A DNA stretch of 63,985 bases, counting the filler, from an uncultured bacterium (lineage in GTDB: Bacteria; CAYJOG01), in the NCBI GenBank assembly GCA_964371695.1. It is 4 parts of 4 records of this genome, joined end to end, with 100 filler letters (N's around TTAATTAATTAA, not from the genome) between each part and the next. Parts side by side here need not be neighbours in the genome. Positions count along the whole stretch, not along the records: positions 17,931 to 35,546 come from CAYJOG010000011.1; 3 more parts are not named here. One strand, given 5' to 3'. Numbering within the stretch: the first letter of the stretch is position 1; each line of letters begins with the position of its first letter. The notes under the pieces are model-generated. The model was not told the DNA's origin, ran no database searches, and saw nothing but the letters and a program-made list of their open reading frames with translations. A program made the position numbers and the translations under genes. Shown here one piece after another: positions 17,637 to 35,422 of the stretch.

Positions 17637-17730
17637 TCGGCTAGGAGTTTTCTGGCTGCTCTGGGTTTTGCGGGGAAGGGGGATCGGGTGTGCCGGAAGG
17701 GCTGGCGCGGCCTTATATAATGATGTTTCT

Positions 17731-17818
17731 GGAGAGGTGGCCGAGTGGTTGATGGCGGCGGTCTTGAAAACCGCTTAGGGTTTATAGCCCTACGTGGGTT
17801 CGAATCCCACCCTCTCCG
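17731..17818 (+). tRNA. tRNA-Ser (anticodon UGA)
   Basis: Acceptor GGAGAGG/CCTCTCC-G, anticodon arm GCGGT-CTTGAAA-ACCGC, long variable arm, GGTTCGAATCC T-arm; CCA not clearly encoded; TATAAT at 17716-17721. Confidence 0.95.
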
Positions 17819-17830
17819 CCCCACAACCTT

Positions 17831-17930: not shown

Positions 17931-17981
17931 ATACAACAGCGATGAGGACATCGCTGCTACTCATTTCAAACCGGATGAACC
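17931..17981. repeat. REP-like palindrome at contig end
   Basis: CAGCGATGAGGACATCGCTGCTACTCATTT...ATGAACC; near-copy at 52634-52682. Confidence 0.7.
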
Positions 17982-17982
17982 A

Positions 17983-18801
17983 CTACGGCTGTGCCTGCAA
18001 CTTGCGGCGCAGGGCAAAAACCTTGTCCAGGCCGTCGGTCTGAATGCCGTCGCTGCCCAGTTCGGCCATGATTTTCTGGTAAAACCGGGGCTGGTCCTGC
18101 CACACCAGGGCGTTGGTGAACACCAGTACGCCCCGGGCGTGGGCGGCGTCTACGGCGGCCGCGTCCAGCTTGCCTGCGTCGCTGTTCAGCGCCCGCAGGT
18201 GCGGATAACGGGCCAGTTGGGACGCCACCTCTGCCGCCGTGCTGAAGTGGGGCATGAGGGGCGCTTCGGGCCACAACGCCGCCAGGGCGCGGGCGGTGTC
18301 CTCGCCGGTGGTGATCACCACGCAATCGCGGCCAAAGCCATATTTTTTCACCAGGGCCACCATGGCGGCGGTGGGGGGTTCCTTGGCGTCCCAATAAAAA
18401 CAGGTTTTGCCTTTCATCACCGCAAGGGCTTCCTCCAACGTGGCCACTTTTTCGCCCCGATAGGCGGGGTTGGTGGTGCGGATGCTGAGCGCCTTGATCT
18501 GGGCGAGCGTGCGCGCAGACACCGGCCCCGTGCCGCTGGTGGTGCGGTTGAGCGTGTCGTCGTGCATCAGCACGGGCACGCCGTCTTTGCTGGTGCGCAC
18601 GTCCAGCTCAATGTAGTCCGCGCCCATTTCAATGGCCTTGCGAATGCCCGCCAGGGTGTTTTCCGGCGCAAAGCGCATGGCGGTGCGGTGGGCAATGACC
18701 AGGATGTTTTTGTTGGGCCGGTGCGTGGGCAGAGATGCCGCACACAAAAGCCGGGGCGAAAAAACCGTCAGAAGCAGGAAACAGAAAATCATTCGACGCA
18801 T
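17983..18801 (-). CDS. Secreted glycerophosphodiester phosphodiesterase
   Basis: 'IAHR', 'PENTL', 'IELDVR.SKDG..V.MHD.TL.RTT', 'GIQTD'. Confidence 0.88.
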   Translation of the reverse strand: MRRMIFCFLLLTVFSPRLLCAASLPTHRPNKNILVIAHRTAMRFAPENTLAGIRKAIEMGADYIELDVRTSKDGVPVLMHDDTLNRTTSGTGPVSARTLAQIKALSIRTTNPAYRGEKVATLEEALAVMKGKTCFYWDAKEPPTAAMVALVKKYGFGRDCVVITTGEDTARALAALWPEAPLMPHFSTAAEVASQLARYPHLRALNSDAGKLDAAAVDAAHARGVLVFTNALVWQDQPRFYQKIMAELGSDGIQTDGLDKVFALRRKLQAQP

Positions 18802-18906
18802 GGGCTTATTTTATGGGCCTGTGTGAATGAAGTGTTGAGCGCCCGTGTTTGCCCTTGATGCAGGGCTGGACAAAAGAAACATTTGCATCTGGCCGATATG
18901 AATTCA

Positions 18907-19000
18907 TACCAATTCTTCTGATCCCTTCCTTGGTTCATCCCGGTTTCCTGACAGCCCGCCCTTCCGGCGGTTTCCTGCCATCGCTGGATTAGAATTGGTA
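18907..19000. mobile_element. Putative 94-bp MITE
   Basis: Perfect terminal inverted repeats TACCAATTCT/AGAATTGGTA flanked on both sides by TCA. Confidence 0.5.
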
Positions 19001-19030
19001 TCAGCACTTCGCCTTGCGGCGACCCCTGCC

Positions 19031-21493
19031 ATGACACCTCCCTGGATCAAAGACCGCCTTGGTCGGCAGGATATTCCCTGGTTGCTGCTGCTCAGCGCTC
19101 TGGCGGTGGTGGTGTGCTGGCCCTTGGTGGGGCAAGGCCAGTTGCCCCTGCACGCTGACAACATCAACGTGAACCTGCCCCGACACGTTTTTTTGCATCA
19201 CCATTTCTTCAGGGGGTTGTTGCCGTTGTGGGATCCGCAGGTGGGCGCGGGGGCCCCCACGGACATTTTTCTCGCCCCCACTTGGCCTTTTTATCCCTTC
19301 AACCTGCCGTTTTACCTGATCCCCGATCCGCTGGATTCGTTCCGCTTCAGTTTTCTCGGCATGTTCCTGATGCTGGGCTGGGTGTTTTATGTCAGTGCGC
19401 GGTTGTCGTTCACGGGCAGCCGGTTTGCCGCCGCGCTGGGGGCGGTGCTGTTCATGCTCAGTGGTTACGCCCAGGTGAACTTTGATCATCCCCAGGACCT
19501 GCCCCCGCTGGCCTGGGCGCCCCTGGTGCTGGCGGGGGCGCTGAACTGGCTGGCCACGCGCAAGCCGCTGTGGCTGTTTGTGATGGCCGGGGCGGTGGGC
19601 TTGCAGTTCATGGGCTTCAACCTGCAATGGGACCTGATGACCTGCCTGATGACGCTGGCGCTGTGGGCCGCCTGGGGATGGGTGCGCCGGGACCAGCGAT
19701 TGAGCGGCCTGCCCGGCCAGCCGGGGCAGGCACTCGTGGGCCTGCTGGGAGCCTGGGGCGTGGGGGCGTTGTCGGCGGCCATTGTGTTGTTGCCCTTCAT
19801 GCTGGGAGGCATGGGGGCAGAAAGGGCCGCGTGGCACTGGCGGTGGAACGTGGGGTTTCCCATGGGGCCGCCACACGTGCTGGCCTCGCTTTATCCCAAC
19901 CTGTTCGGCAGCTTTTTCAGCAACACCCACTGGGCCAACGGGGCCTATTGGGGCGAGAGCACGGGTTATGTGGGTTTCGCCGCGCTCACGCTGGTGTTGT
20001 ATTCCGCAAGGCGGCGGCTGGGCCGCCCTGCTGTCGCGTTTTTGCTGATCGCCCTGTTGGGGCTGGTGATTTCTTTTGGCGCACGCACGCCGGTGGGGCT
20101 GGTGGTGTTCAACCTGCCGCTGTTCCACGCCTTTGCCCACCCGGGGCGCTTCTTTTTTGTCATGACCTGCGCCCTGAGTGTGGCGGTGGCCATGGCCGGT
20201 GAAACACTCACCGAAGAGAAACAACCCCCCGGCGTGCTGGCCCGGTGGGTGATGGGTCTGGCCCTGCTCAGCGCCCTGCTGTTGCTGGTGTTGCGCGGCC
20301 CCATGGAAAACCTGTTTCTGGACCTGCTGCACCGCGCCTATGCCGGGGAGGGTTTCGGGTTTTTGGCCAAGCTGTTTTTGCAGGGCCGGGCCGAGCACGA
20401 CTGGGCGTTTTATGCCGCCAAAAGCAGCGGCATTTTTCGCACGGTCGCCACGGCGGTGGCGGCGGGACATGGTGTGCTGGGGGCGGCCATCGCCCTGGGT
20501 TATCTGGGGCGGGAACAGGCCCGGACAAAGCAGGCGCTGTGGCTGGGGCTGATGGCGGTTTCGCTGCTGATTCCCATGGGGCATTTCACCACCAACCATC
20601 CCGCCGCGCTGCTGCGGCGCGAGCCGGACTATCTCAGGGTGGCCAAACAACACCTGCACGGCGGGCGATTTCTGCCTTCCCTCCAAGCAAAAAACGACCT
20701 TTCCCTGCCCTGGCGCGAAGAGCTGAACACGATTTTTGATGTGCCGCTGGCCAAGGCCTATCTGCACTTTCACGCCGCCAACAACACCCTGCCTCCTGGT
20801 GAGTTCTGCCAGCTTTATGGCGTGCGGGTGCTCACACAGTTTTCGGTGTCAAACCCACCTGCGCCCTATTGCGCGGCACAACATTTGCTGGCCACGGTGA
20901 GGTCCGCCGACGCCACCGGCAAACCCACCGGTTCCCTGCGGCTTTATTCGGTGAAAAACCCGTTGCCGGTGGCCTATCTGGCCCCCACGGTGCGCACTTA
21001 CCCCGCAACGCTTTCGCCCAGCGGCGTGCTGCGCGGGCAGCCCCTCAACCCCCGCCTCACCGTGTTGTTGCCCAAGGCTGACGCCACCGGACTGGACGGT
21101 CTGTTGGAAGAAAATGCTTCACCGCCGGAAGCGATTGACCCACAGAACGGCGTGACGGGTTTTCGCCGCCCCCTGACCCACCAGATGCGCCTGTCGGTGA
21201 AGGCCCCACAGACCACCCTGCTGGTGGTGCTGGAGAACTGGGACCAAGGCTGGCGCGCCACGGTGGACGGCAAACCCGCCCCCATCCGCCGGGCCTTTGG
21301 GGCGTTCATGGCGCTGCGCGTGCCCGCAGGCCAACACCGGGTGGCGCTGGATTATTTCCCCTGGCACTGGCCCTGGCTGCCGCTTTTTTGTGGCGGCGTG
21401 TGGCTGGGGATTTTGCTGGGGGGCGCGGGGTGCTGGTTAACCAACCAGCGGCTCAGTCCCCCGGCTGCGGGTGTGTCTTGGCCCACGCCTTGA
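19031..21493 (+). CDS. YfhO-family (GT-C) polytopic membrane protein
   Basis: 'PLWDP...G.P...FYP' N-terminus, many TMs, C-terminal 'W..GW.A.VDG.....RA...FMA..VPAG.H.V...Y.P'. Confidence 0.8.
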   Translation: MTPPWIKDRLGRQDIPWLLLLSALAVVVCWPLVGQGQLPLHADNINVNLPRHVFLHHHFFRGLLPLWDPQVGAGAPTDIFLAPTWPFYPFNLPFYLIPDPLDSFRFSFLGMFLMLGWVFYVSARLSFTGSRFAAALGAVLFMLSGYAQVNFDHPQDLPPLAWAPLVLAGALNWLATRKPLWLFVMAGAVGLQFMGFNLQWDLMTCLMTLALWAAWGWVRRDQRLSGLPGQPGQALVGLLGAWGVGALSAAIVLLPFMLGGMGAERAAWHWRWNVGFPMGPPHVLASLYPNLFGSFFSNTHWANGAYWGESTGYVGFAALTLVLYSARRRLGRPAVAFLLIALLGLVISFGARTPVGLVVFNLPLFHAFAHPGRFFFVMTCALSVAVAMAGETLTEEKQPPGVLARWVMGLALLSALLLLVLRGPMENLFLDLLHRAYAGEGFGFLAKLFLQGRAEHDWAFYAAKSSGIFRTVATAVAAGHGVLGAAIALGYLGREQARTKQALWLGLMAVSLLIPMGHFTTNHPAALLRREPDYLRVAKQHLHGGRFLPSLQAKNDLSLPWREELNTIFDVPLAKAYLHFHAANNTLPPGEFCQLYGVRVLTQFSVSNPPAPYCAAQHLLATVRSADATGKPTGSLRLYSVKNPLPVAYLAPTVRTYPATLSPSGVLRGQPLNPRLTVLLPKADATGLDGLLEENASPPEAIDPQNGVTGFRRPLTHQMRLSVKAPQTTLLVVLENWDQGWRATVDGKPAPIRRAFGAFMALRVPAGQHRVALDYFPWHWPWLPLFCGGVWLGILLGGAGCWLTNQRLSPPAAGVSWPTP

Positions 21494-22463
21494 AGCGCGC
21501 CGGGGCGCTGGTGTCAAACCACCGTTTGGCCTCGGTGGCCCAGCCCCGTTTGCGGGCGTCTTCAAAGGCCGCTTCGTATTGCTTCAGATAATCCGGCGGG
21601 GTGCGGAACAACGACCCCTGAAACGCCAGAAAAAACCAGCGCACCGTGGCAAAGGATGGATCGCGGTGGGCATTTGCCAGCACCTGCGCCAATTTGTCCA
21701 GCACCGCCGGGGGCATGTCGCGGCGGGTGGCCAGAAACACCATCGGCTCGCCGGGGCGACACACCAAAGGCCCGGCGTTTTTGAACTCTGGTTTCTGTTT
21801 TTGCACAAACAGCCACTTTTGCCAACCCATATACGCCGCGTCGGTTTCGCCCTTCAGCAACTTCTCCAGCGCCACCGCCGGATTGGCGTGAAAATCAAAA
21901 CCGCCAAAGAACTTTTCCAGCGGTTCGTTCACGCCGCCCTCAAACAGCAAACGCCGCACGGTGACGTAATCCGTGAGGCCGTTCAGCCGTTTGCCCTTCA
22001 GCGCCGCCACGCCCTTCAGGCCCCGGCGTTTGTCTACAAACAGGCAGGCCTGGCCATAGGTCTGGCCCTTCACCGTCCAGCCCAGAAAAGGCGTCAGTTG
22101 CTGGCGCAGCACGTCGTGCAGCATGTATTCCTCAGGGTAAAGATAAATCAGCTCGGCCTTTTTCTCGCGGGTGAGACGCATGGCTTCGTCCATGGCCACC
22201 ACGTTGCCGGGCTTGCCGCGTTTCATGGCCAGTTCGTGGCTGTGCAGGATTTCCAGCGAGCCGTCGTAACCCGTTTTCTGCGCCACGCCCTTCACCATGC
22301 TGTTGAAGGCGTCGTAAACGCGGTGATAGTTCACCCCCAGCGAGGCATAACCCATGGGCACATACCAGCGCACTTTTTGCGCCGCCTGGGCCGTGGGCGC
22401 GCCGCACGACAACAACATCAGGCCAGCAACCGCCAATTTCCAGAGTTGAGTGAATCTTTTCAT
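21453..22463 (-). CDS. PhnD/SsuA-like periplasmic substrate-binding protein
   Basis: Signal/lipoprotein-like N-terminus, 'LKGKRL', 'L.GETDAA'; no cognate permease adjacent. Confidence 0.55.
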   Translation of the reverse strand: MKRFTQLWKLAVAGLMLLSCGAPTAQAAQKVRWYVPMGYASLGVNYHRVYDAFNSMVKGVAQKTGYDGSLEILHSHELAMKRGKPGNVVAMDEAMRLTREKKAELIYLYPEEYMLHDVLRQQLTPFLGWTVKGQTYGQACLFVDKRRGLKGVAALKGKRLNGLTDYVTVRRLLFEGGVNEPLEKFFGGFDFHANPAVALEKLLKGETDAAYMGWQKWLFVQKQKPEFKNAGPLVCRPGEPMVFLATRRDMPPAVLDKLAQVLANAHRDPSFATVRWFFLAFQGSLFRTPPDYLKQYEAAFEDARKRGWATEAKRWFDTSAPARFKAWAKTHPQPGD

Positions 22464-22634
22464 GGGTGAATCAGAAGTATAAGAACCAATCCCTTGGTTT
22501 GTTCAGAAGGATGCCTATGTTGAACATCACGCCCCGCCGATGCGCCGGTTCCCGTGCCTGCTTCAACGGCAACCCACCGCCTCAGGGCGGGGCATGCACA
22601 ACTGTTCTTCCGCCGCCCGGTGCGGCTTTTGTGG

Positions 22635-23981
22635 ATGCCACCTCAAGCCCCCTTCATCAGCCCCGTGCCGCTGCTGCCCCACCAGCAGCGGTTTTTTGAC
22701 AGCCGCACCAAAAACCTGGCGCTCATCACCGGCGTGGGAGCGGGCAAGAGTTTTGTGGGGGCGCTCAAAACAGCGCTTCTCTCCCGCGAGGCGTTTCCTC
22801 ATCCGGTGCTCATTGCCACCGGATCGCGTGATCAGCTCTTGCGCAACATCGTGTTTCCGCTTCAGAACATGGCGGCGGAACTGGGTTTCGAGACGGTTTA
22901 CAAGGGATATCCCTATCACCGCCTCACGTTCACCTGGCCCGGCGAGACCGATGAAAACGGCGCACCACGGCAGGGGTTCGGATTTGCATTTGGTGTGCAG
23001 GACGACGGCGCGATGCACCGCATGAGGGGCCTGAACGTGGCCGCCGCCTGGGTGGACGAAGGCCGCGACGTGCCGGTGGAGGCGTGGGAAATCATCAAGA
23101 GTCGCGTGCGCGTGGGTGAGGGGCTGCGGCAGATTCTGCTCACCAGCACACCGGGGCGCGGAGCCGACTGGATGCACCGGTTTTTTGTGCGCGACGTGGC
23201 CGAAAAACCCGCCCGGGCGCGGGACAGGGAACTGATTACCGGCGTCACCAGCGCCCACAATCCGCACCTGCCTGCGGATTATCTGCAAGACCTGCGGGAC
23301 AGTTACGACCCCACCACGCTGGCCCGCGAGTTTCAGGGCCAGTGGGTGGAAGACAAAACCCTGCAGGTGGTGCATGAATTTGACCGCGCCCGCCACGCGG
23401 TGACGGGCGAAGAACAGGATTACACCCCCAACCTGCCGGTGCTGCTGTCGCTGGATTTCAACATGCTGGGCAGCGCGCTGTTGTGCCACTGGTGGGAGGA
23501 AAAGCTGTGGGTGTTCGATGAAATACGCCTGCCCAAAAGCAACACGTGGGAGGTGGTGGGCGAGGCGGTGCGCCGCATGGCAACAGACTTGCCCGCCGAG
23601 CGCCGTGTGCGCGAATGGGTGGTGGCGGGCGACGCCACAGGCCACCACGGCGACACCCGCAGCCGTTACAACGACTGGCAGATTGTGCGGGAAATCCTGC
23701 GGGACAAACCGGCCTTTCCCTGGACCTATCACGAGGCCACCTGGACCCACAACCCCTCGGTGCGCGACACGGTGGTGCTCTTGAACGCCAAGTTCAGCCG
23801 CGACGAGGTGCTGATTCACGAACGCTGCCGCCTGTTGATGATGGACCTGGAAGAAACCCGCTACCGGCCCGGCTCGGAGACGCTGGACAAAACCAACCCC
23901 GACCTCACCCACCTCACCGACGCCCTGCGCTACGCCGCCAAGGCGGTGTATTACAACCACCCCCAAAAGCCGAGTTTGTGA
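22635..23981 (+). CDS. Phage terminase large subunit
   Basis: 'PHQQRF' adenine motif, Walker A GVGAGKS, 'RGLN..AWVDE' Walker B, STP coupling motif; RNase H-like nuclease Asps in LSLDFN, AGDATG, HLTDALRY. Confidence 0.88.
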   Translation: MPPQAPFISPVPLLPHQQRFFDSRTKNLALITGVGAGKSFVGALKTALLSREAFPHPVLIATGSRDQLLRNIVFPLQNMAAELGFETVYKGYPYHRLTFTWPGETDENGAPRQGFGFAFGVQDDGAMHRMRGLNVAAAWVDEGRDVPVEAWEIIKSRVRVGEGLRQILLTSTPGRGADWMHRFFVRDVAEKPARARDRELITGVTSAHNPHLPADYLQDLRDSYDPTTLAREFQGQWVEDKTLQVVHEFDRARHAVTGEEQDYTPNLPVLLSLDFNMLGSALLCHWWEEKLWVFDEIRLPKSNTWEVVGEAVRRMATDLPAERRVREWVVAGDATGHHGDTRSRYNDWQIVREILRDKPAFPWTYHEATWTHNPSVRDTVVLLNAKFSRDEVLIHERCRLLMMDLEETRYRPGSETLDKTNPDLTHLTDALRYAAKAVYYNHPQKPSL

Positions 23982-23998
23982 AAAAAGGGTTTATCTAT

Positions 23999-24032
23999 TT
24001 TGTTTTGCACAGGCGGGACGCCTGCGCCACCA
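23999..24032. repeat. REP, left copy of a 34-bp direct repeat flanking the RAYT
   Basis: TTTGTTTTGCACAGGCGGGACGCCTGCGCCACCA, identical at 24667-24700. Confidence 0.85.
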
Positions 24033-24078
24033 GAACATTGCCACCAGAACTATGTCACCAGAACTGCGCCTCCAGAAC
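24023..24078. repeat. Four degenerate 14-bp tandem repeats
   Basis: CCAGAAC at 24030, 24044, 24058, 24072 (period 14). Confidence 0.75.
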
Positions 24079-24113
24079 AGGCCTTCCCCCAAAAGCCTTT
24101 CCTGAAAATTTTT

Positions 24114-24138
24114 TGGTGGGGCAGGCATCTTGCCTGCC
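24114..24138. repeat. Inverted REP copy downstream of the RAYT
   Basis: TGGTGGGGCAGGCATCTTGCCTGCC: GTGG plus palindrome, opposite orientation to the 24010-24032 copy. Confidence 0.7.
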
Positions 24139-24164
24139 TTGAATAAAAAACAAACCAAAATATT

Positions 24165-24617
24165 TTATGAATGAAAACCTTCGGCCCAAACCCATGGATA
24201 ATCCGCCGCTTCAGGCCACCGCTTTTTGGGGTTACCAAGAATGTATTGCATTTTTTCCAACATGTCTTGTTCGTCCCTTACCTGCCGGTCAAAAGATTCA
24301 TCTTGCCAAACAATCCCCATTTTTCCACGATGTTTTCCAATGGCCTTGCTGGAAAAAGACTTCCAGGAATGGAGGGTTTTTTCAAGTGGATATTGGGCCA
24401 TGGTGGTGAGAACGACATGAACATGATCATCCATCACCACAAAGGCATACAGCAGATAGCGCTGGTCTTTGAAAAATTGCAAAGCGTTGCTTGTGATTGT
24501 TTTCTCTGTTTCAGACAGTTCTGATGTTCCAGAAGCAATTCTCCATGTAACAAAGTATGTAGCCCCCGGCGTGTAAATGTGTGGCAGTCGGCGGCGACGA
24601 ATTGTCACAAACCTCAT
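24165..24617 (-). mobile_element. REP-associated tyrosine transposase (RAYT, Y1 HUH/IS200-like)
   Basis: 'R.LPH....GATYFVTW', HUH motif MDDHVH, 'WQDESFD..VR', catalytic 'YILGNP'; more AT-rich than its neighbours; flanked by REPs. Confidence 0.88.
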
Positions 24618-24666
24618 TCTACAGGTTGTTCGTGTTTGATCATTCGGAAAAGACAGAGGATTTTTC

Positions 24667-24700
24667 TTTGTTTTGCACAGGCGGGACGCCTGCGCCACCA
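24667..24700. repeat. REP, right copy of the 34-bp direct repeat
   Basis: Identical to 23999-24032. Confidence 0.85.
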
Positions 24701-24747
24701 AAAAATGAATTCACCTTTATCACACCAAATCCCACAAGGAGACCCAC

Positions 24748-26121
24748 ATGTCCCACCCCTTTCTGCTCGAAGAAAACCCCACCCACGACGCCGCCACCAG
24801 CGAGTTGCTGGCTTATTACCACGGCTGCCACATGGGTTATCTGCGCCAAGCGCTGAAGAAACGCCTGAGCGAGGCCGACGTGATGACACAGGTGATGGAG
24901 GCGGCCAACCTGGTGCGGCCTTTGGTGGACCTGCTCAGCCCCGCCTATACACCGCCGCCCCACCGCGTGCTGCTGGGGGGCACGCCCACCGAAGAAAGCG
25001 CCTTTTTTCACCTGCTGGAAGACAGCCGCTGGGACGAAACTTTTGACGAAGCCAACCGCCTGGCCACCCTGTGTGGCGTGAGCGCCATCAAGTGCGCCGT
25101 GACGGGCCAGGGCCGCCGCTGGGCCATGCAGGCGCTGGCCCCCAACGCCTGGTGGGCCGCCGCCCACGCCGAGACCCCCGGCGAACTGGCAGCTTTTGTG
25201 CACGAGGCCCTTTTGCCCGGCGAGAACGGCAAACCCCGCTGGCGCACCTATGGTTATACGCCGACGTTTGTCTATTGGCGCGACGCGGGCGCGCCCCTGC
25301 CCAGCCGCATGGCGGTGTTTGATGACACTGCGCCGCTTTTTGAAGGCGTGAACGACGCCCCGGCGGGGCGTATGGTCAACCGTTATGGCCGCATTCCGGT
25401 GGTGCTGGTGGTGAACCGCCGCGCTGCGGGCGGTGTGAAACCACCGGTGGACGAAACCCTGCTGAGCCGCCAGCAGGCCCTGAACCTGAAGCTCACCGGG
25501 CGCAACTTCAACCTCATGGAGCTGGGGTTCAGCCAGTTGGTGCTCAAGGGCCAGTGGGACAAATCCATCCGTCGTAGCGTCACCGAACCCATCAAGGTGC
25601 CCATCGAGCGGGGCGGGGATTTTCAGAACACCGTGGATTACCTCACACCCAACCCCTTTGTGGCCGAGCACCACGAGGCCATCGAAACCGAGTGGGACAT
25701 GGCGGCCCGCGAAAACGGCCTGGACCCCGACACCCTGCGGGGGCGGCGCACCAGCACCAGCGGTTATCACCAGGAACTCAAGGATCAGCGCCTGCGTGAG
25801 CACAAATCCCGCCAGTGCCGCCGCCGCGCCCGCGACGAACGCGAGGCATTTGGTTTGCTCAAGGCGATCAGCGCCGCCGAGGGGGGCGCGCCCCTGCGGC
25901 TTTCGCCGGGGGTGGAATTGTCGGTGGCGTTTTCGCCCTATCGCGTGCCCCGCGACGAAGCCGAGGAATGGACGCTGCTGAAGGATCAGGTGCTGATGGG
26001 CGTGAGGCCGGTGGACGACCTGGTGCGCCTCATCCGCCCCGACCTCACCGGCGAAAAAGCTGTGGGAGATTATCTGGCCAGCGTGAAGGAAAGAAATGGG
26101 CTGCTGACGTTGGGGAGTTAA
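24748..26121 (+). CDS. Putative phage portal protein (SPP1 gp6-like)
   Basis: 457 aa, same strand and downstream of TerL; AGGAG RBS; 'NLVRPLVD.....Y..PP.R' and 'NRYGRIPVV' resemble portal motifs. Confidence 0.62.
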   Translation: MSHPFLLEENPTHDAATSELLAYYHGCHMGYLRQALKKRLSEADVMTQVMEAANLVRPLVDLLSPAYTPPPHRVLLGGTPTEESAFFHLLEDSRWDETFDEANRLATLCGVSAIKCAVTGQGRRWAMQALAPNAWWAAAHAETPGELAAFVHEALLPGENGKPRWRTYGYTPTFVYWRDAGAPLPSRMAVFDDTAPLFEGVNDAPAGRMVNRYGRIPVVLVVNRRAAGGVKPPVDETLLSRQQALNLKLTGRNFNLMELGFSQLVLKGQWDKSIRRSVTEPIKVPIERGGDFQNTVDYLTPNPFVAEHHEAIETEWDMAARENGLDPDTLRGRRTSTSGYHQELKDQRLREHKSRQCRRRARDEREAFGLLKAISAAEGGAPLRLSPGVELSVAFSPYRVPRDEAEEWTLLKDQVLMGVRPVDDLVRLIRPDLTGEKAVGDYLASVKERNGLLTLGS

Positions 26122-26160
26122 GCCGGAGGGGAAAGAACCTGCGGCCAATCTGGTTTTCAT

Positions 26161-26230
26161 GGCGGGCGAGGACGCCCGCCCCACTACAAAACAGCTTTCT
26201 TGCTCAGTGGGGCGGGCGTCCTCGCCCGCC
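26161..26230. repeat. REP doublet (perfect 25-bp inverted pair)
   Basis: GGCGGGCGAGGACGCCCGCCCCACT (26161-26185) / AGTGGGGCGGGCGTCCTCGCCCGCC (26206-26230). Confidence 0.85.
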
Positions 26231-26336
26231 TCTGGTGAGAAAAGCAAAAAACCATACCCGCACCGTCTTCCCGCCCCAAGGTGGAAAACCGGTCACCGGG
26301 GGATGACGGCGGGGCGGAATGTTATAAACTCCGCCC

Positions 26337-27110
26337 GTGCGAAAACTGGTATTTGCTGCTCCCCTGCTGCTGGCGGGTTTTTTGCCTCATGCACAGGCCA
26401 TCACGCTGGATCACCTGAGCGTGCTCACCTATCAGGAGAAGATTCAGGTGGAGGCCCTGGCGAGCGACGCCGCCGCCGTCAAGGACATCGCCGCCTTTGA
26501 CGCCACCGGCAAGCTGCTCTATCGCCGCGAGTGTCCCAAGGCCCCCGTGTGCCGTGCCGTGTTTGTGCTCGAATCGGTGGACAGCCCTCAGCGCACCCTC
26601 ACCCTGCTGGCCACCAACACCGAGGGCAAGAGCGCCAGCGAGGTGTTCACCGCCCAGGTGGAAAAAAACGTGGCGCGGGTCTATGTGCTCAACAAGATTG
26701 AAGACGCCAACACGTTACTGCCCCTGGGGGCCTTTGACTTTTTGAACAAAGACCTGGTGGCCGGCACCGTGCCTGCCGAAATGATGGCCTCTNNNNNNNN
26801 NNCCTCTGAAAAACCCGGCGAGTTGCCCAGCCACGACCCAAATCTGGAACTGCCCAAAATGGACCTGGGGCATTATCAGGACGGCGACAAGCTGGTGCTC
26901 ACCGCCAAGGCCAGCAGCAAGGTGGGCATGGACAGCATCGCGATTCTGGAAGATGGTCTTTTTCTGGACGTGGAGCTGTGCAGCGGCGAAAAGAAATGCA
27001 CCTTCACCAAGGTGCTGGCCCGCCCCAGCGGCAAACACACCTACCGCTTCAAGGCCCGCACGGTGGGGGGCGCGCAAAAAGAGGAAGAGCTGCTGGTGGA
27101 TTTGCCATGA
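26337..27110 (+). CDS. Secreted protein, probably two Ig-like beta domains (spans false gap 26793-26802)
   Basis: Signal peptide ending AQA; two Cys pairs (CPKAPVC, CSGEKKC); frame preserved across the gap. Confidence 0.6.
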   Translation: MRKLVFAAPLLLAGFLPHAQAITLDHLSVLTYQEKIQVEALASDAAAVKDIAAFDATGKLLYRRECPKAPVCRAVFVLESVDSPQRTLTLLATNTEGKSASEVFTAQVEKNVARVYVLNKIEDANTLLPLGAFDFLNKDLVAGTVPAEMMASXXXXSEKPGELPSHDPNLELPKMDLGHYQDGDKLVLTAKASSKVGMDSIAILEDGLFLDVELCSGEKKCTFTKVLARPSGKHTYRFKARTVGGAQKEEELLVDLP

Positions 27111-28888
27111 CGCGGAAGCCAGGGCTTTTCGGGGGAAAAAGAATCCTCGGCCAAGGCAACGAAAAATCCAGGAGCCACGGGCCATGGATGGCCGTCCTAT
27201 TCATGCTTGGCCTTTATGGCTGCGGCGGTGGCGGCAGCACGCAGGACGTGAAAAACCCCAACCGCACGTTGATGCTGACGAGCGCCAGCACCAGCACTTT
27301 TCCCAACGGCAGTTTTCCCAAGGCCATGGTGGTGGCCAAAAACGAACTGTGGGTCACCAATCAATACAGCAAGCTGGTGGTGGCGAGCGCCGACCTGGAC
27401 ACCATGCCCGACACCGATGGCGACCAGCACCCCGACCTGTGCGAGTTTCTCAAAAACAGCGACCCCGACGACGCAGGCAGCACCCCCCCGCCCCTGGGGG
27501 CAGACCCCACACCAGCGGGCAACTGCGGCGACATCGCCTTCAGCCGCGTGACGGTGCTGGACGCGGGCACCCTGGCGGTGCTGGGACAGGTGGACGTGCC
27601 CCGCGAAGCCAATTACATCGCCAGCGACGGTGAGAACATTTATGTCACCCACGCCCGCGAGGGCTGGCTCACCAAGATTGACCGCGCCGCCCGCAAAATC
27701 CTCACCACCAAACGCATTGACACCAGCGGCCTTGGCCCCCTCAATGAAATCGTCTATGACACGACCCGCGACAGCCTCTATACCCTGGTGAGCACCATTG
27801 ACACCGGCAAACCCAAAAGCCTCAGCCAGTTCATCAGCATCAGCAACGTGAGCGCCGTGGGCAAAAACGGAACCTTCACCACCACCAAGCTGGAGATTCC
27901 CCCCGCGCAGAACCTCACCCGTCGCGTGCCCGCCCTGGCGCTGAACGAGACCGAGGGCAAGGTGTATGTGGCCGCCTTTGACCAGAAACGCATTTATCAG
28001 ATTGACGTGACGCTGCCCACGCCGGATTTCGCCAAAGAAGTCAGCAGCATCAAGGGCAGCCGCGCCGACATCAAGGATGTGGTCGGTGACGACGCCAAAA
28101 TCACGCTGGACACCGACATGATTCCCTTAAGCGCCGCCACGGCGCTCAAGTTCAAGGACAAAACCTTCAACTTCGACCCCACCTTCAAAAACACCGACAC
28201 CGCAGGCACCAGCACATTGCAGGCCCACGTGGCGGTGTTGCTGGACACCAACGGCGACGGCACGGACGACCGCACCTATCACGGCGTGCTGGACCTGGAA
28301 AAGGGTGAACTGACGTTTTATGACTTCGTGACCACCAGCAGCGGAAAAACCACGGTGGAAGACGCCGACAAGATCCGCGAGCCGGTGCAATACAAGGGCG
28401 AGCGCATCCTGGCCAAGGATTACACCATCGAGGGCACGCTCATCGTGACCTTCAACAAAGACCTGGAAGCCCCCGCAGGCCTGCAACTGTTCCAGCACGG
28501 GGGCGACAACTATCTGGGGGTGCTGTATTCGGAGGTGGACAAACTCTCGCTGGTAAAAATTGCGCCGGGCACCAGTCTGAGCACCGCCAGCCGATTTGGT
28601 GTGCTCACCGCCACGGGGGATTTTCCCCAGGACATGGGGGTGTTCGACGGCTACCCCTCTGCCAACGGGGCGCGGGTTTATGTCACCAACCGCAACGACA
28701 ACACGCTGGTGAGTTACGACGTGGATTTCACACAAACCGCCAGCAGCACACTGGCCATACAGGAGTTGCAGCGGGACGCCTTTGGCGACCGCCCCTGGGA
28801 GTTGCTCACCGCCGGTGGCGACGCACGGCGGTTTTTTATGACCCTTCACGGCGCCAACACCGTGGCGCTGTTTGAGAATGTGCGGTAG
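27107..28888 (+). CDS. Lipoprotein with YVTN-type beta-propeller
   Basis: Lipobox LYGC then Gly linker; WVTN, YVTH, YVAA, YVTN blades; DxDGD motifs; ATGA overlap with the upstream gene (alternative start 27188). Confidence 0.7.
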   Translation: MTRKPGLFGGKRILGQGNEKSRSHGPWMAVLFMLGLYGCGGGGSTQDVKNPNRTLMLTSASTSTFPNGSFPKAMVVAKNELWVTNQYSKLVVASADLDTMPDTDGDQHPDLCEFLKNSDPDDAGSTPPPLGADPTPAGNCGDIAFSRVTVLDAGTLAVLGQVDVPREANYIASDGENIYVTHAREGWLTKIDRAARKILTTKRIDTSGLGPLNEIVYDTTRDSLYTLVSTIDTGKPKSLSQFISISNVSAVGKNGTFTTTKLEIPPAQNLTRRVPALALNETEGKVYVAAFDQKRIYQIDVTLPTPDFAKEVSSIKGSRADIKDVVGDDAKITLDTDMIPLSAATALKFKDKTFNFDPTFKNTDTAGTSTLQAHVAVLLDTNGDGTDDRTYHGVLDLEKGELTFYDFVTTSSGKTTVEDADKIREPVQYKGERILAKDYTIEGTLIVTFNKDLEAPAGLQLFQHGGDNYLGVLYSEVDKLSLVKIAPGTSLSTASRFGVLTATGDFPQDMGVFDGYPSANGARVYVTNRNDNTLVSYDVDFTQTASSTLAIQELQRDAFGDRPWELLTAGGDARRFFMTLHGANTVALFENVR

Positions 28889-28935
28889 GAAAGAGAGAAA
28901 CGCGAGCCTTTGGCGTATGCTCTTTTTGAAGCAAA

Positions 28936-29898
28936 ATGGCTGAACCAAAGCTCAACAAAAATCCGGCTACACCCAAAAAGGGTGCCGGGCGAGGCGTTTC
29001 ACCCATTTATCTTGAAAAGGCTGATCAACCAGAAATATCAGATAATGTTTTTTTACGATTTCGTGGAGATCGAAAAATTGCCTTCGGGTGGTATGGTGGG
29101 AAATATTCGCACCTTGATTGGCTGCTGCCGTTGCTTCCCAAATGCCATCATTACTGTGAGCCGTTCTCAGGCTCAGCGGCTGTTTTACTGAACCGAGAGC
29201 CGTCTCCAGTCGAAACATACAACGACATTGATGGGGAAGTGGTTAACTTCTTCCGCGTCCTACGGGATCAGCATGAGGTGCTTATCCGCGCCATTGCCCT
29301 GACTCCTTTTGCCAGAGAGGAGTATTACCACGCAATCAATGCACCCACCTTGGGTGTTGACGAAGTTGAGCGTGCCCGGCGATTCTATATCCGTGCGCGA
29401 CAAACCCGCACCGGCTTGGCTCAAACCGCGTCGCTTGGCCGTTGGGCTAATTGCAAGGATACAAGCAGAAGCGGCATGTCAGGGGTGGTGTCGCGCTGGC
29501 TGGGGGGCATCCATGCGCTCGACAGCATTGTTCAGCGGCTCATTCGTGTCCAAATCGAAAACCGTCCGGCAATGGATATCATTCGACTTTACGACAGTCA
29601 GACCACCTTGTTTTACTGTGACCCACCATACCTTCACGCCACCAGGGGAGATTCCAAAGCCTATGGATTTGAAATGGATGAAATTCAACATCGGGAATTG
29701 GCCGAAGTCTTGGGTGCCTGCAAAGGTTTGGTCGCTGTTTCTGGTTACGATCATCTGTTGATGGAAGAGTTGTATCCACCAAATTGCTGGCACAAAATAA
29801 TCGGCCCAAGCAAAACCATTCATTCCACCAAGGACTTACGCCAGGAAGTTCTTTGGACAAATTTCAAACCCTCAGGACAAGGATCCTTGTTCGAATGA
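28936..29898 (+). CDS. DNA adenine methyltransferase (D12/Dam-like)
   Basis: 'W.GGK', 'EPFSGS', 'YNDI', catalytic DPPY, 'EVLW.N'. Confidence 0.9.
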   Translation: MAEPKLNKNPATPKKGAGRGVSPIYLEKADQPEISDNVFLRFRGDRKIAFGWYGGKYSHLDWLLPLLPKCHHYCEPFSGSAAVLLNREPSPVETYNDIDGEVVNFFRVLRDQHEVLIRAIALTPFAREEYYHAINAPTLGVDEVERARRFYIRARQTRTGLAQTASLGRWANCKDTSRSGMSGVVSRWLGGIHALDSIVQRLIRVQIENRPAMDIIRLYDSQTTLFYCDPPYLHATRGDSKAYGFEMDEIQHRELAEVLGACKGLVAVSGYDHLLMEELYPPNCWHKIIGPSKTIHSTKDLRQEVLWTNFKPSGQGSLFE

Positions 29899-31034
29899 AT
29901 TCTCCCCAAAAGCACTCCCCTCAAGAAACCCTCCAGGACATCTACCTCAGGGCAACTTCAGCAACCGAGGAAACAGCTATTTCCGATGCTGCTGCTCGCG
30001 AGCGGGTGGAATATGTGTGCCGATGTACAAGTAATCGGGCGGGCGTACGACTGCTCATGGCCTGCCTCCTGGCAAAGCTGGACAATCCTTCTGTTGACCC
30101 TCGCAAGCCCTACACGGAAATCGGCACACCAGACAGCTTCTCAGGCCGCACCTATGACGAACAGTACCTGTCTGCCTTCATTAATTCGCAGCATTTGCCC
30201 TGCAATCAGACCACTGCTTTTCTTACGCCGACATTTCGAAACATCAGCGAAACCCTGTCGCCGGACAAAGAACTTGTCGGGCGTCCAAGGGAACTGTACA
30301 AAAAAACGCTCTTGCTTTTAGATGATGTGGCGGAGGGACGCATCAAGGCAGACATTTTGTTTGTGGAGGTAGTGCGCATATTGTTGCGCGTGCGTGATGA
30401 AAATCAATCTCGGTTGGGTTCACTCTTAAGTGCTGTTGAGCAGCCTAAGGGTGCATTACCCCTTTCCAGCGAGGCCATCATAACCCTCATCGGCCAGCAC
30501 TTGGCATGCAAAAATGCTAGTCGCTTGCCCGTATTGATCATGGCCGCAGCCTACAGGGCTGTCGGCGACCTCCTGGGAGAACAGGCGCTGGCGCTTTGTT
30601 CCCACAACGCCGCCGATCTTCAAACCGGTTCAATTGGCGATGTGGAAATCCGCTTGGCGGGCGATGATGCCGTCGTGACGGCGTATGAGATGAAAATGAA
30701 GCCAGTTACCATTCAAGATATTGATGCAGCGGTAAAAAAGATATTAAAGGCTGAATCACGCATTCAAAATTACATTTTTGTTACCACTTGCAGGATTGAT
30801 TCAGATGCCGCTGAATATGCCTGCCAGTTTTATGAGAAAACAGGGGGGACAGAAATCGTCATCTTGGATTGCCTTGGATTTCTAAAACATTTTTTGCACT
30901 TTTTTCATCGTCTACGGAGTGAGTTTTTGGATACTTATCAAGAACTGGTGGTAAATGAGCCAGATTCCGCAGTCCGACCAGCGCTCAAAGAGGCTTTTCT
31001 GGCATTGCGGCAAGCGGCTGAAACGGGTGATTAG
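29895..31034 (+). CDS. Putative type II restriction endonuclease (SacI-like, tentative)
   Basis: ATGA overlap with the MTase; PD-(D/E)xK-like 'GDVE...YEMK'; lower GC than the host. Confidence 0.6.
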   Translation: MNSPQKHSPQETLQDIYLRATSATEETAISDAAARERVEYVCRCTSNRAGVRLLMACLLAKLDNPSVDPRKPYTEIGTPDSFSGRTYDEQYLSAFINSQHLPCNQTTAFLTPTFRNISETLSPDKELVGRPRELYKKTLLLLDDVAEGRIKADILFVEVVRILLRVRDENQSRLGSLLSAVEQPKGALPLSSEAIITLIGQHLACKNASRLPVLIMAAAYRAVGDLLGEQALALCSHNAADLQTGSIGDVEIRLAGDDAVVTAYEMKMKPVTIQDIDAAVKKILKAESRIQNYIFVTTCRIDSDAAEYACQFYEKTGGTEIVILDCLGFLKHFLHFFHRLRSEFLDTYQELVVNEPDSAVRPALKEAFLALRQAAETGD

Positions 31035-32102
31035 ATGATTCCGCCTTCTTCTCCCAACCCCTGGCTTTCCATCCAGGATCTCGCCTGCGTGTTTCACGGC
31101 GGCGCGGGGCTGCATCCGTTTTCTCTGGAGGCGGGCGAGGGCGAGTTTGTGGTGGTGGTGGGGCCCTCAGGCTGTGGCAAGAGCACGCTGTTGCGCCTGC
31201 TGGCGGGTTTGCAGCCGCCGCAAAGCGGCCGCGTCACGCTGGGGGGGCGCGACATCACGGCCCTGCCGCCTCAGGGGCGCGACATCGCCATGGTGTTTCA
31301 GGACTACGCGCTTTATCCGCACCTCACCGTCAAGGGCAACCTGATGTTTCCGCTGCAAGCCCGGCGCACACCCAAAGCCGAGGCCGAAAAAAAGGTGGCC
31401 GACGTGGCGGCGCGCCTGGGTCTGGAACCGCTGCTGAAACAGTATCCCCGCACACTCAGCGGCGGCCAGCGCCAACGGGTGGCCGTGGGCCGGGCCTGGG
31501 TGCGCGCGCCGCGACTTTTTCTTTATGACGAACCCCTCAGCAATCTGGACGCCGCCCTGCGGGCCGAGCTGCGGCAGGAACTGCTGGAGCTGAAAAAAGC
31601 CCTGGGCGTCACGTCGCTTTACGTCACCCACGATCAGGTGGAAGCCCTCACGCTGGCCGACCGACTGGTGGTGCTGAAAAACGGCCAGACGTTGCAGGTG
31701 GGCCGCCCGCAGGAGGTTTATGAGCGCCCGGCCCACGCCTTTGTGGCGGGTTTTCTGGGACAGCCCCGCATGGTGCTGCTGCCGGTGCGCCGCGAGGGCG
31801 GGCGGCTTTTGCTTTGCCCGCCTGATCAGGCCGCGCTGCTGGCGGGTACACGGCCCGAACACTGGTTACCCGCCACCGGCGCTGAAGCACCGGATGGCCT
31901 GCACGTGCAGGCGGCGCTCACCCACCGCGAGTTTGTGGGAGCCACGGCGGTGCTCACGCTCTCGCCCCCCTTTGGCCTGCCATTTTTTGTCACCCGCCCA
32001 CCGGGCGAAGCCTCGCCGGAACAGGGCGGCTGGTTTGCCCCGGCGGACAAACTGCACCTGTTTGACGCAAGAACCCGCTTACGGCTTGAGCAGACTGAAT
32101 AA
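31035..32102 (+). CDS. MalK-type ABC transporter ATP-binding protein
   Basis: GPSGCGKS, '[10 protein letters not shown]', LSGGQRQR, 'DEPLSNLD', 'YVTHDQ.EA'. Confidence 0.9.
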
Positions 32103-32144
32103 GGCAAGTTAATTTTGTGTAAGTTTATGCACTCCAACATCGTT

Positions 32145-32170
32145 CCCTCTCCCCATTAAAGGGGAGAGGG
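32145..32170. repeat. CCCTCTCCC...GGGAGAGGG palindrome
   Basis: CCCTCTCCCC-ATTAAA-GGGGAGAGGG between convergent genes. Confidence 0.6.
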
Positions 32171-32245
32171 GGTAGATGGCGTTCTGTTGTTCGGGTGACG
32201 GGTACGACAAGGCGAAAAACCGTGCATAGACTTAAGAAAAATGAA

Positions 32246-33286
<1,041 letters not shown>

Positions 33287-34153
33287 TTAGCCCAGGGCTT
33301 TTTTGACGAGGCCAGGGATTTGATCGGTGGTGTCGGCGATGGGCACTTTGGCGTCCGTGAGCGCCGCCACCTTGGCCTGGGCCGTGCCCTTGTTGCCGCT
33401 CACGATGGCCCCGGCGTGGCCCATGCGTTTGCCCGGCGGCGCAGTGCGCCCGCTGATGAAGCCCACCACGGGTTTGCTCATGGTCTTGATGTATTCCGCG
33501 GCTTCTTCTTCGTCGCTGCCGCCGATCTCACCCACCATCACCACCACTTTGGTGGCGGGGTCTTTTTCAAAGGCCATGAGGCAGTCGATGAAGGTGCTGC
33601 CGATGATGGGGTCGCCGCCAATGCCCACGCAGGTGGTCTGCCCCAGGCCGTTCACGGTGAGTTCGTTCACGATTTCATAGGTGAGGGTGCCGCTGCGGCT
33701 GATCATGCCCACGGGGCCGGGGGTGAAGATGTTGCCCGGCATGATGCCGATTTTGCACTCACCCGGCGTAATCAGGCCCGGACAGTTGGGGCCGATCAGC
33801 ACCTGGCCGCGAGACTTCACCAAGTGAAACACCGGCACCATGTCCAACAGGGCGATGCCCTCGGTGATGCAGATGATCACCGGCAGTCCCGCGTCGCTGG
33901 CCTCCACAATGGCGTCGGGCGCAAAAGGCGGCGGCACAAAAATCACCGAGGCGTTCGCGCCGGTTTCTTTCACGGCCTGGGTCACGGTGTCGAACACCGG
34001 CACGCCCAGGGCCGATTGCCCCCCCTTGCCGGGCGTCACGCCCGCGACAAGATTGGTGCCATATTCCTTGCACAGACCGGCGTGAAAACCGCCCTCTTTG
34101 CCTGTGATGCCTTGCACCAGCAAGCGGGTGTTCTTGTCTACATAAATGCTCAT
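33287..34153 (-). CDS. sucD: Succinyl-CoA synthetase alpha subunit
   Basis: 'QGITG', 'GPNCPG', 'SRSGTLTYE', 'RMGHAGA'. Confidence 0.96.
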
Positions 34154-35298
34154 TTCGCGCCTCCGATCAGCGCCACAATGCGCTTGGCCGCGTCCAGCAT
34201 GGTGGCCTCGGTATAGACCCCGGCGGTGGCGTTTTCCTGAAGAATCTTGCGGCCTTCTTCTTCGTTGGTGCCGCTCAGGCGCACCACCACGGGCACGGTC
34301 ACGCCCAGGCTCTTGATGCCCTCCAGCAGGCCCTTGGCCACTTCGTCGCAGCGGGTGATGCCGCCAAAAATGTTGAACAGCACGCCTTTTACCTTCGGGT
34401 CTTTCAGCACGTGACCCAGGCTCTTTTTCACATGGTCGGCCTTGGCGCCGCCGCCAATGTCCAGAAAGTTGTTGGGCTTGCCCCCCACGCGGCTCACCAC
34501 GTCCAGGCTCGTCATCACCAGCCCCGCGCCGTTGCCAATGATGCCCACGTCGCCGTCGAGGTGAACATAGGTGATGCCCTCCTGCTGGGCGATGCGCTCC
34601 AGTTCGTCGTCGGCGCTGGCTTCAAACAGGTCTTCGAGATTTTTGTGGCGGAACATGGCGTTGTCGTCAATGTCCATTTTTGCGTCCAGCGCCTGCACCT
34701 TGCCCGCCTTGTTGATGATGAGCGGGTTGATCTCCACCAGCGTGCAGTCCAGGTCTTCATAAGCCTTGTAAAGCGCCCGGATGACCACGCCGAGATCCTT
34801 GTGCTGCGCGGCGGGAAAACCGCCGTCGAACAGGATGCGCCGCACGTGGCTGGCGGTGAGGCCCGTGGTGGGATGCACGTGCTGCTTCACGATTTTTTCG
34901 GGCGTGGCGACGGCGACTTCTTCGATGTCGATGCCCCCCGACATGCTGGCCATGATCACCGGCAACCGCGCGTCGCGGTCCATGGTCACCCCCAGATAAA
35001 TCTCCTGGGCGATGTCCGCCGTTTCGGTCACCAGCACTTTTTCCACCGTCAGGCCCTTGATCAACATGCCCAGGATGTGACTGGCTTTTTCTTTGGCTTC
35101 GGCGGCGTTCGCGGCGAGTTTCACGCCCCCCGCCTTGCCCCGGCCCCCGGCATGCACCTGGGCCTTGATGACCACCTGGCCCCCCAGGCGGCCCGCAATT
35201 TCCGCCGCCTGATCGGGCGTGGTGGCCACTTCGCCGGGCGGAATGTCGAAACCATAGGGGCGCAGCAGCTCCTTGGCCTGATACTCATGAATCTTCAA
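34150..35298 (-). CDS. sucC: Succinyl-CoA synthetase beta subunit
   Basis: 'MKIHEYQAK', '[13 protein letters not shown]', 'GNGAGL', 'NIFGGI.RCD'; AGGAGG RBS. Confidence 0.96.
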
Positions 35299-35388
35299 GG
35301 GGAAACCTCCTTAAGTAACAAAGGGTTTGTATGCTAGGGAAGAACCCTGGGCATGGCAACGAATGAAAGCAGATGCCCCGCGCGCCCC

Positions 35389-35422
35389 AGAACCTGTTCA
35401 TAAAGTCCGTCCTGGACTCTAT
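35389..35422. repeat. Element end shared with 43507-43540
   Basis: AGAACCTGTTCATAAAGTCCGTCCTGGACTCTAT versus reverse complement AGAGCCTGTTAATAAAGTCCCTCCTGGACTTTAT. Confidence 0.6.

Follow-up and report, generated by a model that had tools for sequence, protein, structure and literature searches.

Why should a bacterium keep the genes of two phage DNA-packaging proteins, a large terminase (TerL) and a portal protein, close together among ordinary genes of its own? This question is raised by a 63,985-nt stretch of DNA from an uncultured bacterium (GenBank assembly GCA_964371695.1). The whole stretch, referred to here as the window, consists of four scaffolds joined by N/TTAATTAATTAA spacers. 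The terL gene (22635-23981) and the portal gene (24748-26121) both lie on the plus strand of the scaffold at 17931-35546 (17.6 kb), and a first-pass annotation had proposed that they form a possibly domesticated packaging motor. In this study, comparison with the sequence of a relative indicates that the pair is probably a selectively maintained remnant and not a decaying relic. With a probability that we put at about 0.5, the pair is all that survives of the head module of an old siphovirus-type prophage; it is inherited vertically, remains functional under selection, and serves as the packaging vertex of a split system that resembles gene transfer agents (GTAs).

Identity of the two packaging proteins

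The TerL open reading frame (ORF) extends over 22554-23981 in a 475-aa form, and the ATG at 22635 gives an intact protein of 448 aa, in which an ATPase domain is followed by a putative C-terminal nuclease domain. The protein matches the Pfam families Terminase_6N (E 2.7e-11; 44 bits, cut-off 22) and Terminase_3 (30.1 bits, cut-off 23.2), as well as the PHROG family of large terminase subunits, phrog_2 (E 2e-29; residues 36-465 in the 475-aa form); separate C-terminal terminase PHROGs cover residues 248-469 in the same numbering. Its score of 43.3 bits against the NCBIfam PBSX-family equivalog TIGR01547 (cut-off 105) shows that it is not that equivalog, and no sequence match to TerL was found in the PDB. 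A tblastn search with TerL returned 885 phage records, 790 of them with at least 80% query coverage and all of them below 60% identity, the best matches among those listed being about 27-28% identical. The motifs were compared in an alignment of four sequences, namely, the window protein, a 98% identical relative, a 63% identical homologue, and a 29% identical homologue. Invariant in this alignment are G33-S39 (GVGAGKS), D141/E142, and T170/T172 and, in the C-terminal part, D274-N276 (DFN), G332-G336 (GDATG), and D429/A430/Y433, which we take to represent the Walker A, Walker B, and coupling motifs and the nuclease acids. Every motif residue is kept in the 63% identical homologue (P0002), and the invariant D274, D333, and D429 are the predicted catalytic residues of the nuclease, an assignment by position only. 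The ATPase and nuclease motifs that had been reported as intact are all present, and they hold down to the homologue of 29% identity.

By its own sequence, the intact 457-aa portal protein matches no Pfam family and does not reach the gathering score of PF05133 (SPP1_portal). Comparison with PHROGs gave only a weak portal match (E 0.0023), and a tblastn search against phages and plasmids gave no match. An exhaustive HMMER search of 1.84 billion representatives recovered 76 proteins, including the representative of the portal's own cluster, and 74 of these (that representative and 73 remote homologues, leaving out the short P0045 and P0074) were aligned. PF05133 is matched by 27 of the 74 aligned proteins (best E 8.4e-18), and the profile of the family matches the PDB portal chains 9d94, 8zdl, and 8zdj (E 8e-5 to 2e-4). 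The AlphaFold2 model of the portal (pLDDT 90.3, pTM 0.88) gave 165 Foldseek matches in the PDB at E ≤ 0.001. All the matches listed are portals or portal-containing virion complexes (phage, satellite, or archaeal virus), e.g., those of Bxb1 (6.3e-13), SPP1 (1.1e-12), SaPI1/80alpha, T7, lambda, and HFTV1, and the query-normalised TM-score reaches 0.61 (SPP1). The protein would accordingly be named as a divergent relative of PF05133, rather than a scored member, with a fold of the SPP1 gp6 type, whose domains we assume to be the crown, wing, stem, and clip. The description of this ORF as portal-like is borne out by the model and the Foldseek matches, in which the portal fold is recovered over the whole chain. 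The portal ATG is preceded by AAGGAG, presumably a ribosome-binding site.

Both proteins are isolated within their families. Word-limited searches of 5.8 billion clusters with TerL returned its own cluster, one homologue of 63% identity, and one of 24%, and a word-based search of the same clusters with the portal returned its own cluster only; among the 1.84 billion representatives that were searched exhaustively, the closest portal outside that cluster has 39% identity. Because the nearest TerL and the nearest portal are this distant, the pair adds a distinct branch to both families. Viral contigs contain two remote portals of 20-30% identity and otherwise no relative; one of the two sits in a normal portal-capsid-tail module, where the ORF upstream of the portal is not similar to the window TerL. 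No relative of the pair was found in a metagenome contig collection, and a plasmid collection gave no portal match and TerL matches of at most 28% identity among those listed. A scan of genome contigs found only a weak N-terminal match in a Paucibacter genome, and the SucC of the window is 45% identical to that of Paucibacter, so the host is not close to that proteobacterium. Other assemblies contain proteins identical to the window TerL and portal (P0079 and P0083), in each case on contigs that reach 87,272 nt.

Purifying selection and a relative from groundwater

The locus was found in seven public sequencing runs, four from sediment (one study) and three from groundwater (study P2), with 74-86% of the sampled words of the locus present in the sediment runs and 8-9% in the groundwater runs. 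Two sediment runs (X1 and X2) and two groundwater runs (X5 and X6) were compared with the window over 17931-26792. X1 and X2 carry the window's own sequence, with 0 differences in 15 of the 16 listed pieces and 1 in the remaining piece. X5 contains a relative, whose left-hand host genes differ from those of the window at 68 of 569 positions in the GDPD gene (88.0% identity), at 78 of 525, 88 of 588, and 121 of 761 positions in three pieces of the YfhO gene (84-85%), and at 127 of 1129 positions in the binding-protein gene (88.8%). In terL together with 143 nt upstream (22492-23981; X5 record 20), 113 of 1490 positions differ, with 21 gap letters (92.4%), and the upstream part (22492-22634) aligns at 80% identity or more to the contig that carries the relative's terL. 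The portal gene differs at 115 of 1360 positions without gaps (91.5%), and the secreted-protein gene to its right at 28 of 493 (94.3%). Conservation is thus higher in terL and the portal gene than in the left-hand host genes (84-89%). X6 contains the same relative in shorter pieces.

The synteny of the relative was judged from several indirect signs. Among the X5 contigs listed, those with GDPD, the long YfhO/binding-protein piece, terL, and the portal and secreted-protein genes show depths of 8.2-8.8, and a short YfhO contig (record 18) shows 7.48; such near-equal depths are what one genome would give. The upstream region of terL is shared, and the contigs end in the same intergenic spaces. 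Together, these signs make it probable that the relative has the same gene order as the window. As a separate observation, X6 has one contig of much higher depth (43.8), whose match to terL is short and shows a 3-nt deletion in frame at 23200-23205; a more abundant organism with a related terminase may be its source, or GC-rich sequence may have matched by chance.

The 90%-identity clusters of TerL and of the portal have five members each. The Logan proteins P0080 (on a 1581-nt contig) and P0085 (on a 1591-nt contig) come from contigs of exactly the same lengths as X5 records 20 and 21, and by this match and that of their source they are most probably the TerL and portal of the groundwater relative. 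This TerL is full length and differs from that of the window at 11 of 448 residues. The portal, also full length, differs at 25 of 453 residues (1-453), without gaps, and has a short divergent C-terminal tail. The ratio of nonsynonymous to synonymous substitution rates (dN/dS), obtained with Nei-Gojobori site counts from 70-113 base differences in terL and 105-115 in the portal gene, ranges over 0.03-0.07 for TerL and 0.08-0.12 for the portal, at a dS of about 0.2-0.4. In 5000 neutral simulations, the same number of substitutions was scattered with the observed spectrum; 50-70 amino-acid changes would then be expected in TerL and about 80 in the portal, compared with the 11 and 25 observed. 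None of the 5000 simulations was as low as the observed values, and only 9-21% were free of stops. No stops or frameshifts are present in either gene in either lineage.

Because dN/dS is roughly 0.03-0.12 and no neutral simulation came as low, the two genes appear to be maintained and not decaying. The idea of a possible domestication can be kept in its general form, i.e., the genes are retained, apparently vertically inherited, and constrained, as the relative's intact genes and the dN/dS values indicate; this outcome does not extend to the mechanism. The first-pass annotation had also named findings that would count against it, namely, an ORF without a portal fold, a pair that is absent or degraded in relatives, and neutral substitution. 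What was found is a portal fold, a pair that is intact in the relative, and non-neutral selection.

Chromosomal setting of the pair

No other phage genes were found on the 17.6-kb scaffold when all large ORFs were compared with Pfam and the unexplained ones with PHROGs, and searches of Pfam, PHROG, and NCBIfam detected no integrase, lysis, replication, or regulatory families there. These scans agree with the earlier statement that no capsid, protease, tail, integrase, or lysis gene stands beside the pair. The scaffold contains no tRNA, no Rfam family was found, and the pair is not bracketed by direct repeats resembling attachment (att) sites. On the other three scaffolds (46 kb), none of 41 ORFs has a phage Pfam family. 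When 17 ORFs of these scaffolds and three host ORFs of the pair's scaffold were compared with PHROGs, the sole matches were domain-level ones, to the scaffold's GDPD protein. The sole tRNA of the window, a tRNA-Ser (anticodon tga, ARAGORN), lies at 17730-17821, at the extreme end of the first scaffold. None of the listed public runs that carry the locus is an RNA run.

Codon usage was compared with that of 26 Pfam-supported host genes. The GC content at third codon positions (GC3) is 0.80 for TerL and 0.81 for the portal, with a host mean of 0.77, and the codon-usage distances of the two genes (z -1.5 and z -0.8, respectively) lie within the host range, as the description of their codons as host-like and GC-rich had implied. 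Three other genes of the scaffold, i.e., those of a transposase, a methylase, and a restriction enzyme, have z values of +9.3, +7.6, and +7.1, respectively, and a GC3 of 0.45-0.52. From its codon use and from the repeats that flank it, the terL-portal pair appears to be a long-term resident of the chromosome.

The transposase gene lies between the two genes of the pair. The spacer of 766 nt from terL to the portal gene holds, on the opposite strand (24165-24701), a gene for a transposase of 178 aa that belongs to the tyrosine transposases associated with repetitive extragenic palindromic (REP) elements (RAYT; NCBIfam NF047646, 80.1 bits, cut-off 80; Pfam Y1_Tnp). The earlier statement that the frames are uninterrupted holds for each gene and fails for the pair, since the RAYT gene sits between them. 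A repeat search found a 40-nt direct repeat with a hairpin on both sides of the RAYT gene; the left copy, with its REP-like hairpin, is at 23999-24038 and the right copy, which is 95% identical, at 24667-24706, both on the plus strand. The 24-nt core of this repeat occurs in exactly two exact copies in the window (0 expected), and three 14-nt tandem units (83-100% identical) lie beside the left REP copy at 24028-24078. Directly 3' of the portal gene, at 26161-26230, there is a REPIN-like doublet of two perfect 25-nt inverted REP arms, 20 nt apart. The REP of this doublet recurs at 13011-13034 on another scaffold and at 33208-33231 in the spacer between mdh and sucD, and the GC-rich 24-nt REP family has four matches in the window (0 expected) with at most 2 mismatches among the copies. 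REPIN-RAYT systems are described as chromosomal and mostly vertically inherited in the abstract of 10.1101/2022.05.22.493013. Because such systems are chromosomal and mostly vertical and the same REP is present in host spacers, the sequences around the terL-portal pair have been colonised by REP/REPIN elements of the host.

In the groundwater relative, the RAYT gene seems to be missing. The depth of X5 drops to 2-3 over RAYT, and an X5 contig with a depth of 9.6 joins 24148 to 24678, with a short side of only 22 nt that makes it weak evidence. These data suggest that terL and the portal gene of the relative are about 240 nt apart without RAYT, and because the relative appears to be without it, RAYT may be a recent, lineage-specific insertion between the two genes. 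With a GC3 of 0.45 against the host's 0.77, RAYT was possibly acquired horizontally, which would be unusual for a mostly vertical family. Joints from 24030, 24137, and 24138 to 26170-26214 and from 20248 to 26211, with sides of 21-26 nt, were rejected as signs of a portal deletion; we attribute them to copies of the REP at other places in those metagenomes.

The scaffold is free of gaps over 17931-26792. Its single gap of 10 N (26793-26802) begins 672 nt past the portal stop, and contiguity to the right of the portal ends there, so the right-hand context beyond the gap hinges on the scaffold join. To the left of the pair are genes for a GDPD phosphodiesterase (17983-18801, minus strand; Pfam), a YfhO-family membrane protein (18995-21493, plus strand), and a PhnD-like binding protein (21453-22463, minus strand; under the Pfam cut-off). 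According to the ORF list, the 171-nt spacer (22464-22634) between terL and the divergent binding-protein gene contains no gene for a small terminase (terS). The sole plus-strand ORF there (22466-22699; 77 aa), which overlaps this spacer, is a low-complexity translation and was ruled out as a terS on this ground, in line with the first-pass annotation, which had seen no recognisable terS in the ~170 nt before terL.

To the right, the ORF list gives a gene for a signal-peptide (secreted) protein (26337-27110), which spans the gap, and a lipoprotein gene (27107-28888), whose ATG overlaps the preceding stop. The ATGA overlap at 27107-27110 suggests that they form a two-gene envelope operon, and neither protein has a Pfam or PHROG match. 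A reading of the secreted protein as a two-domain repeat across the gap is unsupported, as the halves of the gap-spanning ORF are dissimilar. A Dam-type N6-adenine methylase gene (PADLOC MTase_II, E 1.7e-56) and a gene with a weak match to type II restriction enzymes follow at 28936-31034. This restriction-modification island (GC3 about 0.5), with the lipoprotein gene on one side and the gene of an ABC ATPase on the other, is compositionally foreign. Right of 31034 are the genes for the ABC ATPase, malate dehydrogenase, and the alpha and beta subunits of succinyl-CoA synthetase. The view of the flanks as ordinary host genes is upheld for GDPD, YfhO, and the PhnD-like protein on the left and for the signal-peptide protein and lipoprotein on the right. 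Spacers between the genes of the scaffold are at most about 250 nt in the ORF list, and there is therefore no room for hidden genes. Elsewhere in the window, the third scaffold starts with long homopolymer runs of C, G, and C (35647-35690), which are probably a sequencing or assembly artefact.

Possible roles of the pair and their meaning

Among the papers listed on orphan terminases, defective prophages, and domestication, none describes a locus of only terL and portal by title or abstract. According to the relevant excerpts of PMC9254644, Rickettsiaceae have their GTA genes in several clusters, Holosporaceae endosymbionts encode the large terminase outside the main GTA cluster, and 'singlet' GTA terminases have been reported. 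Like the pair, such split-locus GTAs (RcGTA-type, in Alphaproteobacteria) are, as far as these excerpts go, chromosomally fixed, vertical, and possibly away from other structural genes. The strength of selection is similar as well, with a dN/dS of 0.06-0.08 given for GTA genes of Rhodobacterales in the same excerpts (PMC9254644) and about 0.03-0.12 for the pair. Vertical inheritance together with purifying selection, by which GTAs are recognised, was found for the pair in one relative lineage, with synteny judged indirectly. In contrast to GTAs, the pair has no structural locus seen in the 64-kb window and is known from its genes alone; its TerL is of the Terminase_6N/Terminase_3 type, about 27% identical to siphovirus terminases, and its portal is SPP1-type, and they are not family-level homologues of the alphaproteobacterial GTA proteins. 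The portal of alphaproteobacterial GTAs presumably belongs to a different Pfam family.

Cryptic prophage remnants resemble the pair in that phage genes stand among host genes without integrase, att sites, lysis genes, or regulators. Such remnants gather pseudogenes and, according to the excerpted text of PMC7744054, usually lose terminase and portal first, whereas the pair consists of only these two genes, intact and constrained. The siphovirus modules of Escherichia phage EC115 (Dhillonvirus) and Prochlorococcus phage MED4-184, which gave the best tblastn matches to TerL among those listed, resemble the pair in that a gene of portal size comes directly after terL and has the same orientation. 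Their TerL proteins align with that of the window over 93-96%, but at only about 28% identity, and in EC115 a terS precedes terL and head-morphogenesis and major capsid genes follow, where the window has host genes. Phage satellites, such as phage-inducible chromosomal islands (PICIs) and capsid-forming PICIs, also carry packaging genes. Like the pair, PICI-like satellites have a subset of head and packaging genes and lack a full set of virion genes; they act on or with parts of a helper. Unlike a PICI, the pair has no integrase, replication module, regulators, or att repeats; it shows no sign of mobility and looks syntenic in the relative.

In tailed phages, a portal ring nucleates the capsid and occupies one of its vertices, and TerL docks there, cuts the DNA, and pumps it in. 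Under the reading that we prefer at about even odds, a head module with the order terS-terL-portal-head genes would have been cut down to terL and portal and fixed in the chromosome, and the pair would still serve to package DNA at one vertex of a capsid, where the portal would make up the ring and TerL, driven by ATP, would cut the DNA and pump it in. We know of no portal or TerL that acts without a capsid, and because neither protein can package without a capsid shell, the head proteins must come in trans. The capsid, a scaffold or protease, and any neck or tail proteins would thus be supplied from elsewhere, most likely from a second locus in this genome, and the whole would be a split GTA-like or defective-particle system. 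The lack of a terS beside terL would fit non-specific, GTA-style packaging.

Several points weigh against this interpretation. The partner capsid locus is purely conjectural, and the 64-kb window shows neither a terS nor any gene for a capsid, protease, scaffold, adaptor, or tail protein. A promoter and terminator scan stayed at chance level, with no promoter-like sites above chance upstream of terL or of the portal gene, and the pair cannot be a single transcript in the window's lineage, because RAYT on the opposite strand splits it. The evidence for selection comes from one relative lineage in two runs of one study, in which none of the listed contigs runs from a host gene into terL or the portal gene, and the dN/dS values are ranges and not fits, because the counts were taken from contigs that also cover the 143 nt before terL. 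The family has no relation to the alphaproteobacterial GTAs, so a GTA-like role would imply an independent domestication. Finally, terminase and portal genes were preferentially lost, not kept, in the incomplete prophages of a survey, as its excerpted results state (PMC7744054), and for this reason retention of the pair would be unusual whichever role it has.

Alternatively, the host may keep a packaging vertex without capsid genes of its own, which acts on the capsids of invading phages or works without a capsid as a DNA translocase or nuclease; taken together, these two possibilities are doubtful. In the former, which is unlikely when taken singly, the targets of the host's portal and TerL would be capsids of phages that infect the cell or reside in it. 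With the portal built into foreign procapsids and the wrong DNA cut or packaged by the terminase, phage assembly would be spoiled or heads would become transducing particles, much as satellites redirect packaging. Such capsid piracy is consistent with selection for exactly the two packaging-vertex proteins and nothing else and with the absence of visible capsid genes in 64 kb. The restriction-modification pair 2.8 kb downstream indicates a neighbourhood that accepts defence genes, although this pair is compositionally foreign, recent, and historically unrelated to terL and portal, and neither TerL nor portal matches any of the 5027 defence models of PADLOC. Moreover, a portal must fit a specific capsid protein, which makes a broad action on foreign phages hard to achieve, and no host system that pirates capsids with its own portal and TerL is known to us. 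The capsid-independent role, in which the portal ring and TerL would be re-used by the cell, e.g., for DNA export, uptake, or repair, and which the first-pass annotation had given as its second option, is very unlikely. It would suit the retention of only these two genes, the conserved ATPase and nuclease motifs, and the envelope proteins encoded downstream. However, no helix or strand of an ordinary virion portal is missing from the portal model, which matches such portals over its whole length, no signal peptide or membrane segment is seen in the portal by eye, and the envelope genes are 215 nt away from the portal gene with the REPIN in between; to our knowledge, there is no precedent for such a role.

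That the pair is an inert leftover of a deleted prophage, functionless and undecayed by chance, is less probable than piracy and is the reading that the data oppose most clearly. Prophage remnants trimmed by deletion are common, both the terS that lies just upstream in phage relatives and the head genes that come after the portal in these, and in a remote portal relative, are absent, a transposase has landed between the two genes, and promoter-like sites do not exceed chance. Against this stand the counts of amino-acid changes (11 and 25, with about 50-70 and 80 expected under neutrality and none of the 5000 simulations as low), the absence of stops and frameshifts in both lineages, and the better conservation of both genes than of the left-hand host genes. 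An effect of assembly, i.e., the rest of a normal prophage lying adjacent and being hidden by the 10-N gap or by a mis-join at a REP, has the slightest chance of all. The gap at 26793-26802 exists, the dissimilar halves of the ORF that spans it leave continuity unproven, and the Logan contigs of all four runs break at REP copies. Nevertheless, the sequence is gap-free over 17931-26792, from the left flank through the portal to the first 456 nt of the non-phage signal-peptide gene, and on this contiguous left side terS is absent. Where phages have same-strand head genes, the portal is followed by a REPIN and a gene of host composition. The relative's secreted-protein contig (record 22) starts 217 nt left of 26300, and P0079 and P0083 are each found on long contigs, which may or may not be the same.

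Terminase and portal are reported to go early when prophages decay, and a lineage that keeps exactly terL and portal under strong constraint is therefore an exception. Should the vertex act on the capsids of invaders, it would represent a new assembly-level defence or a host-run route of transduction. The pair thus points to one of two things in an uncultured bacterium of sediment and groundwater: a split GTA-like system that evolved independently, or a viral DNA motor put to a new use by its host.

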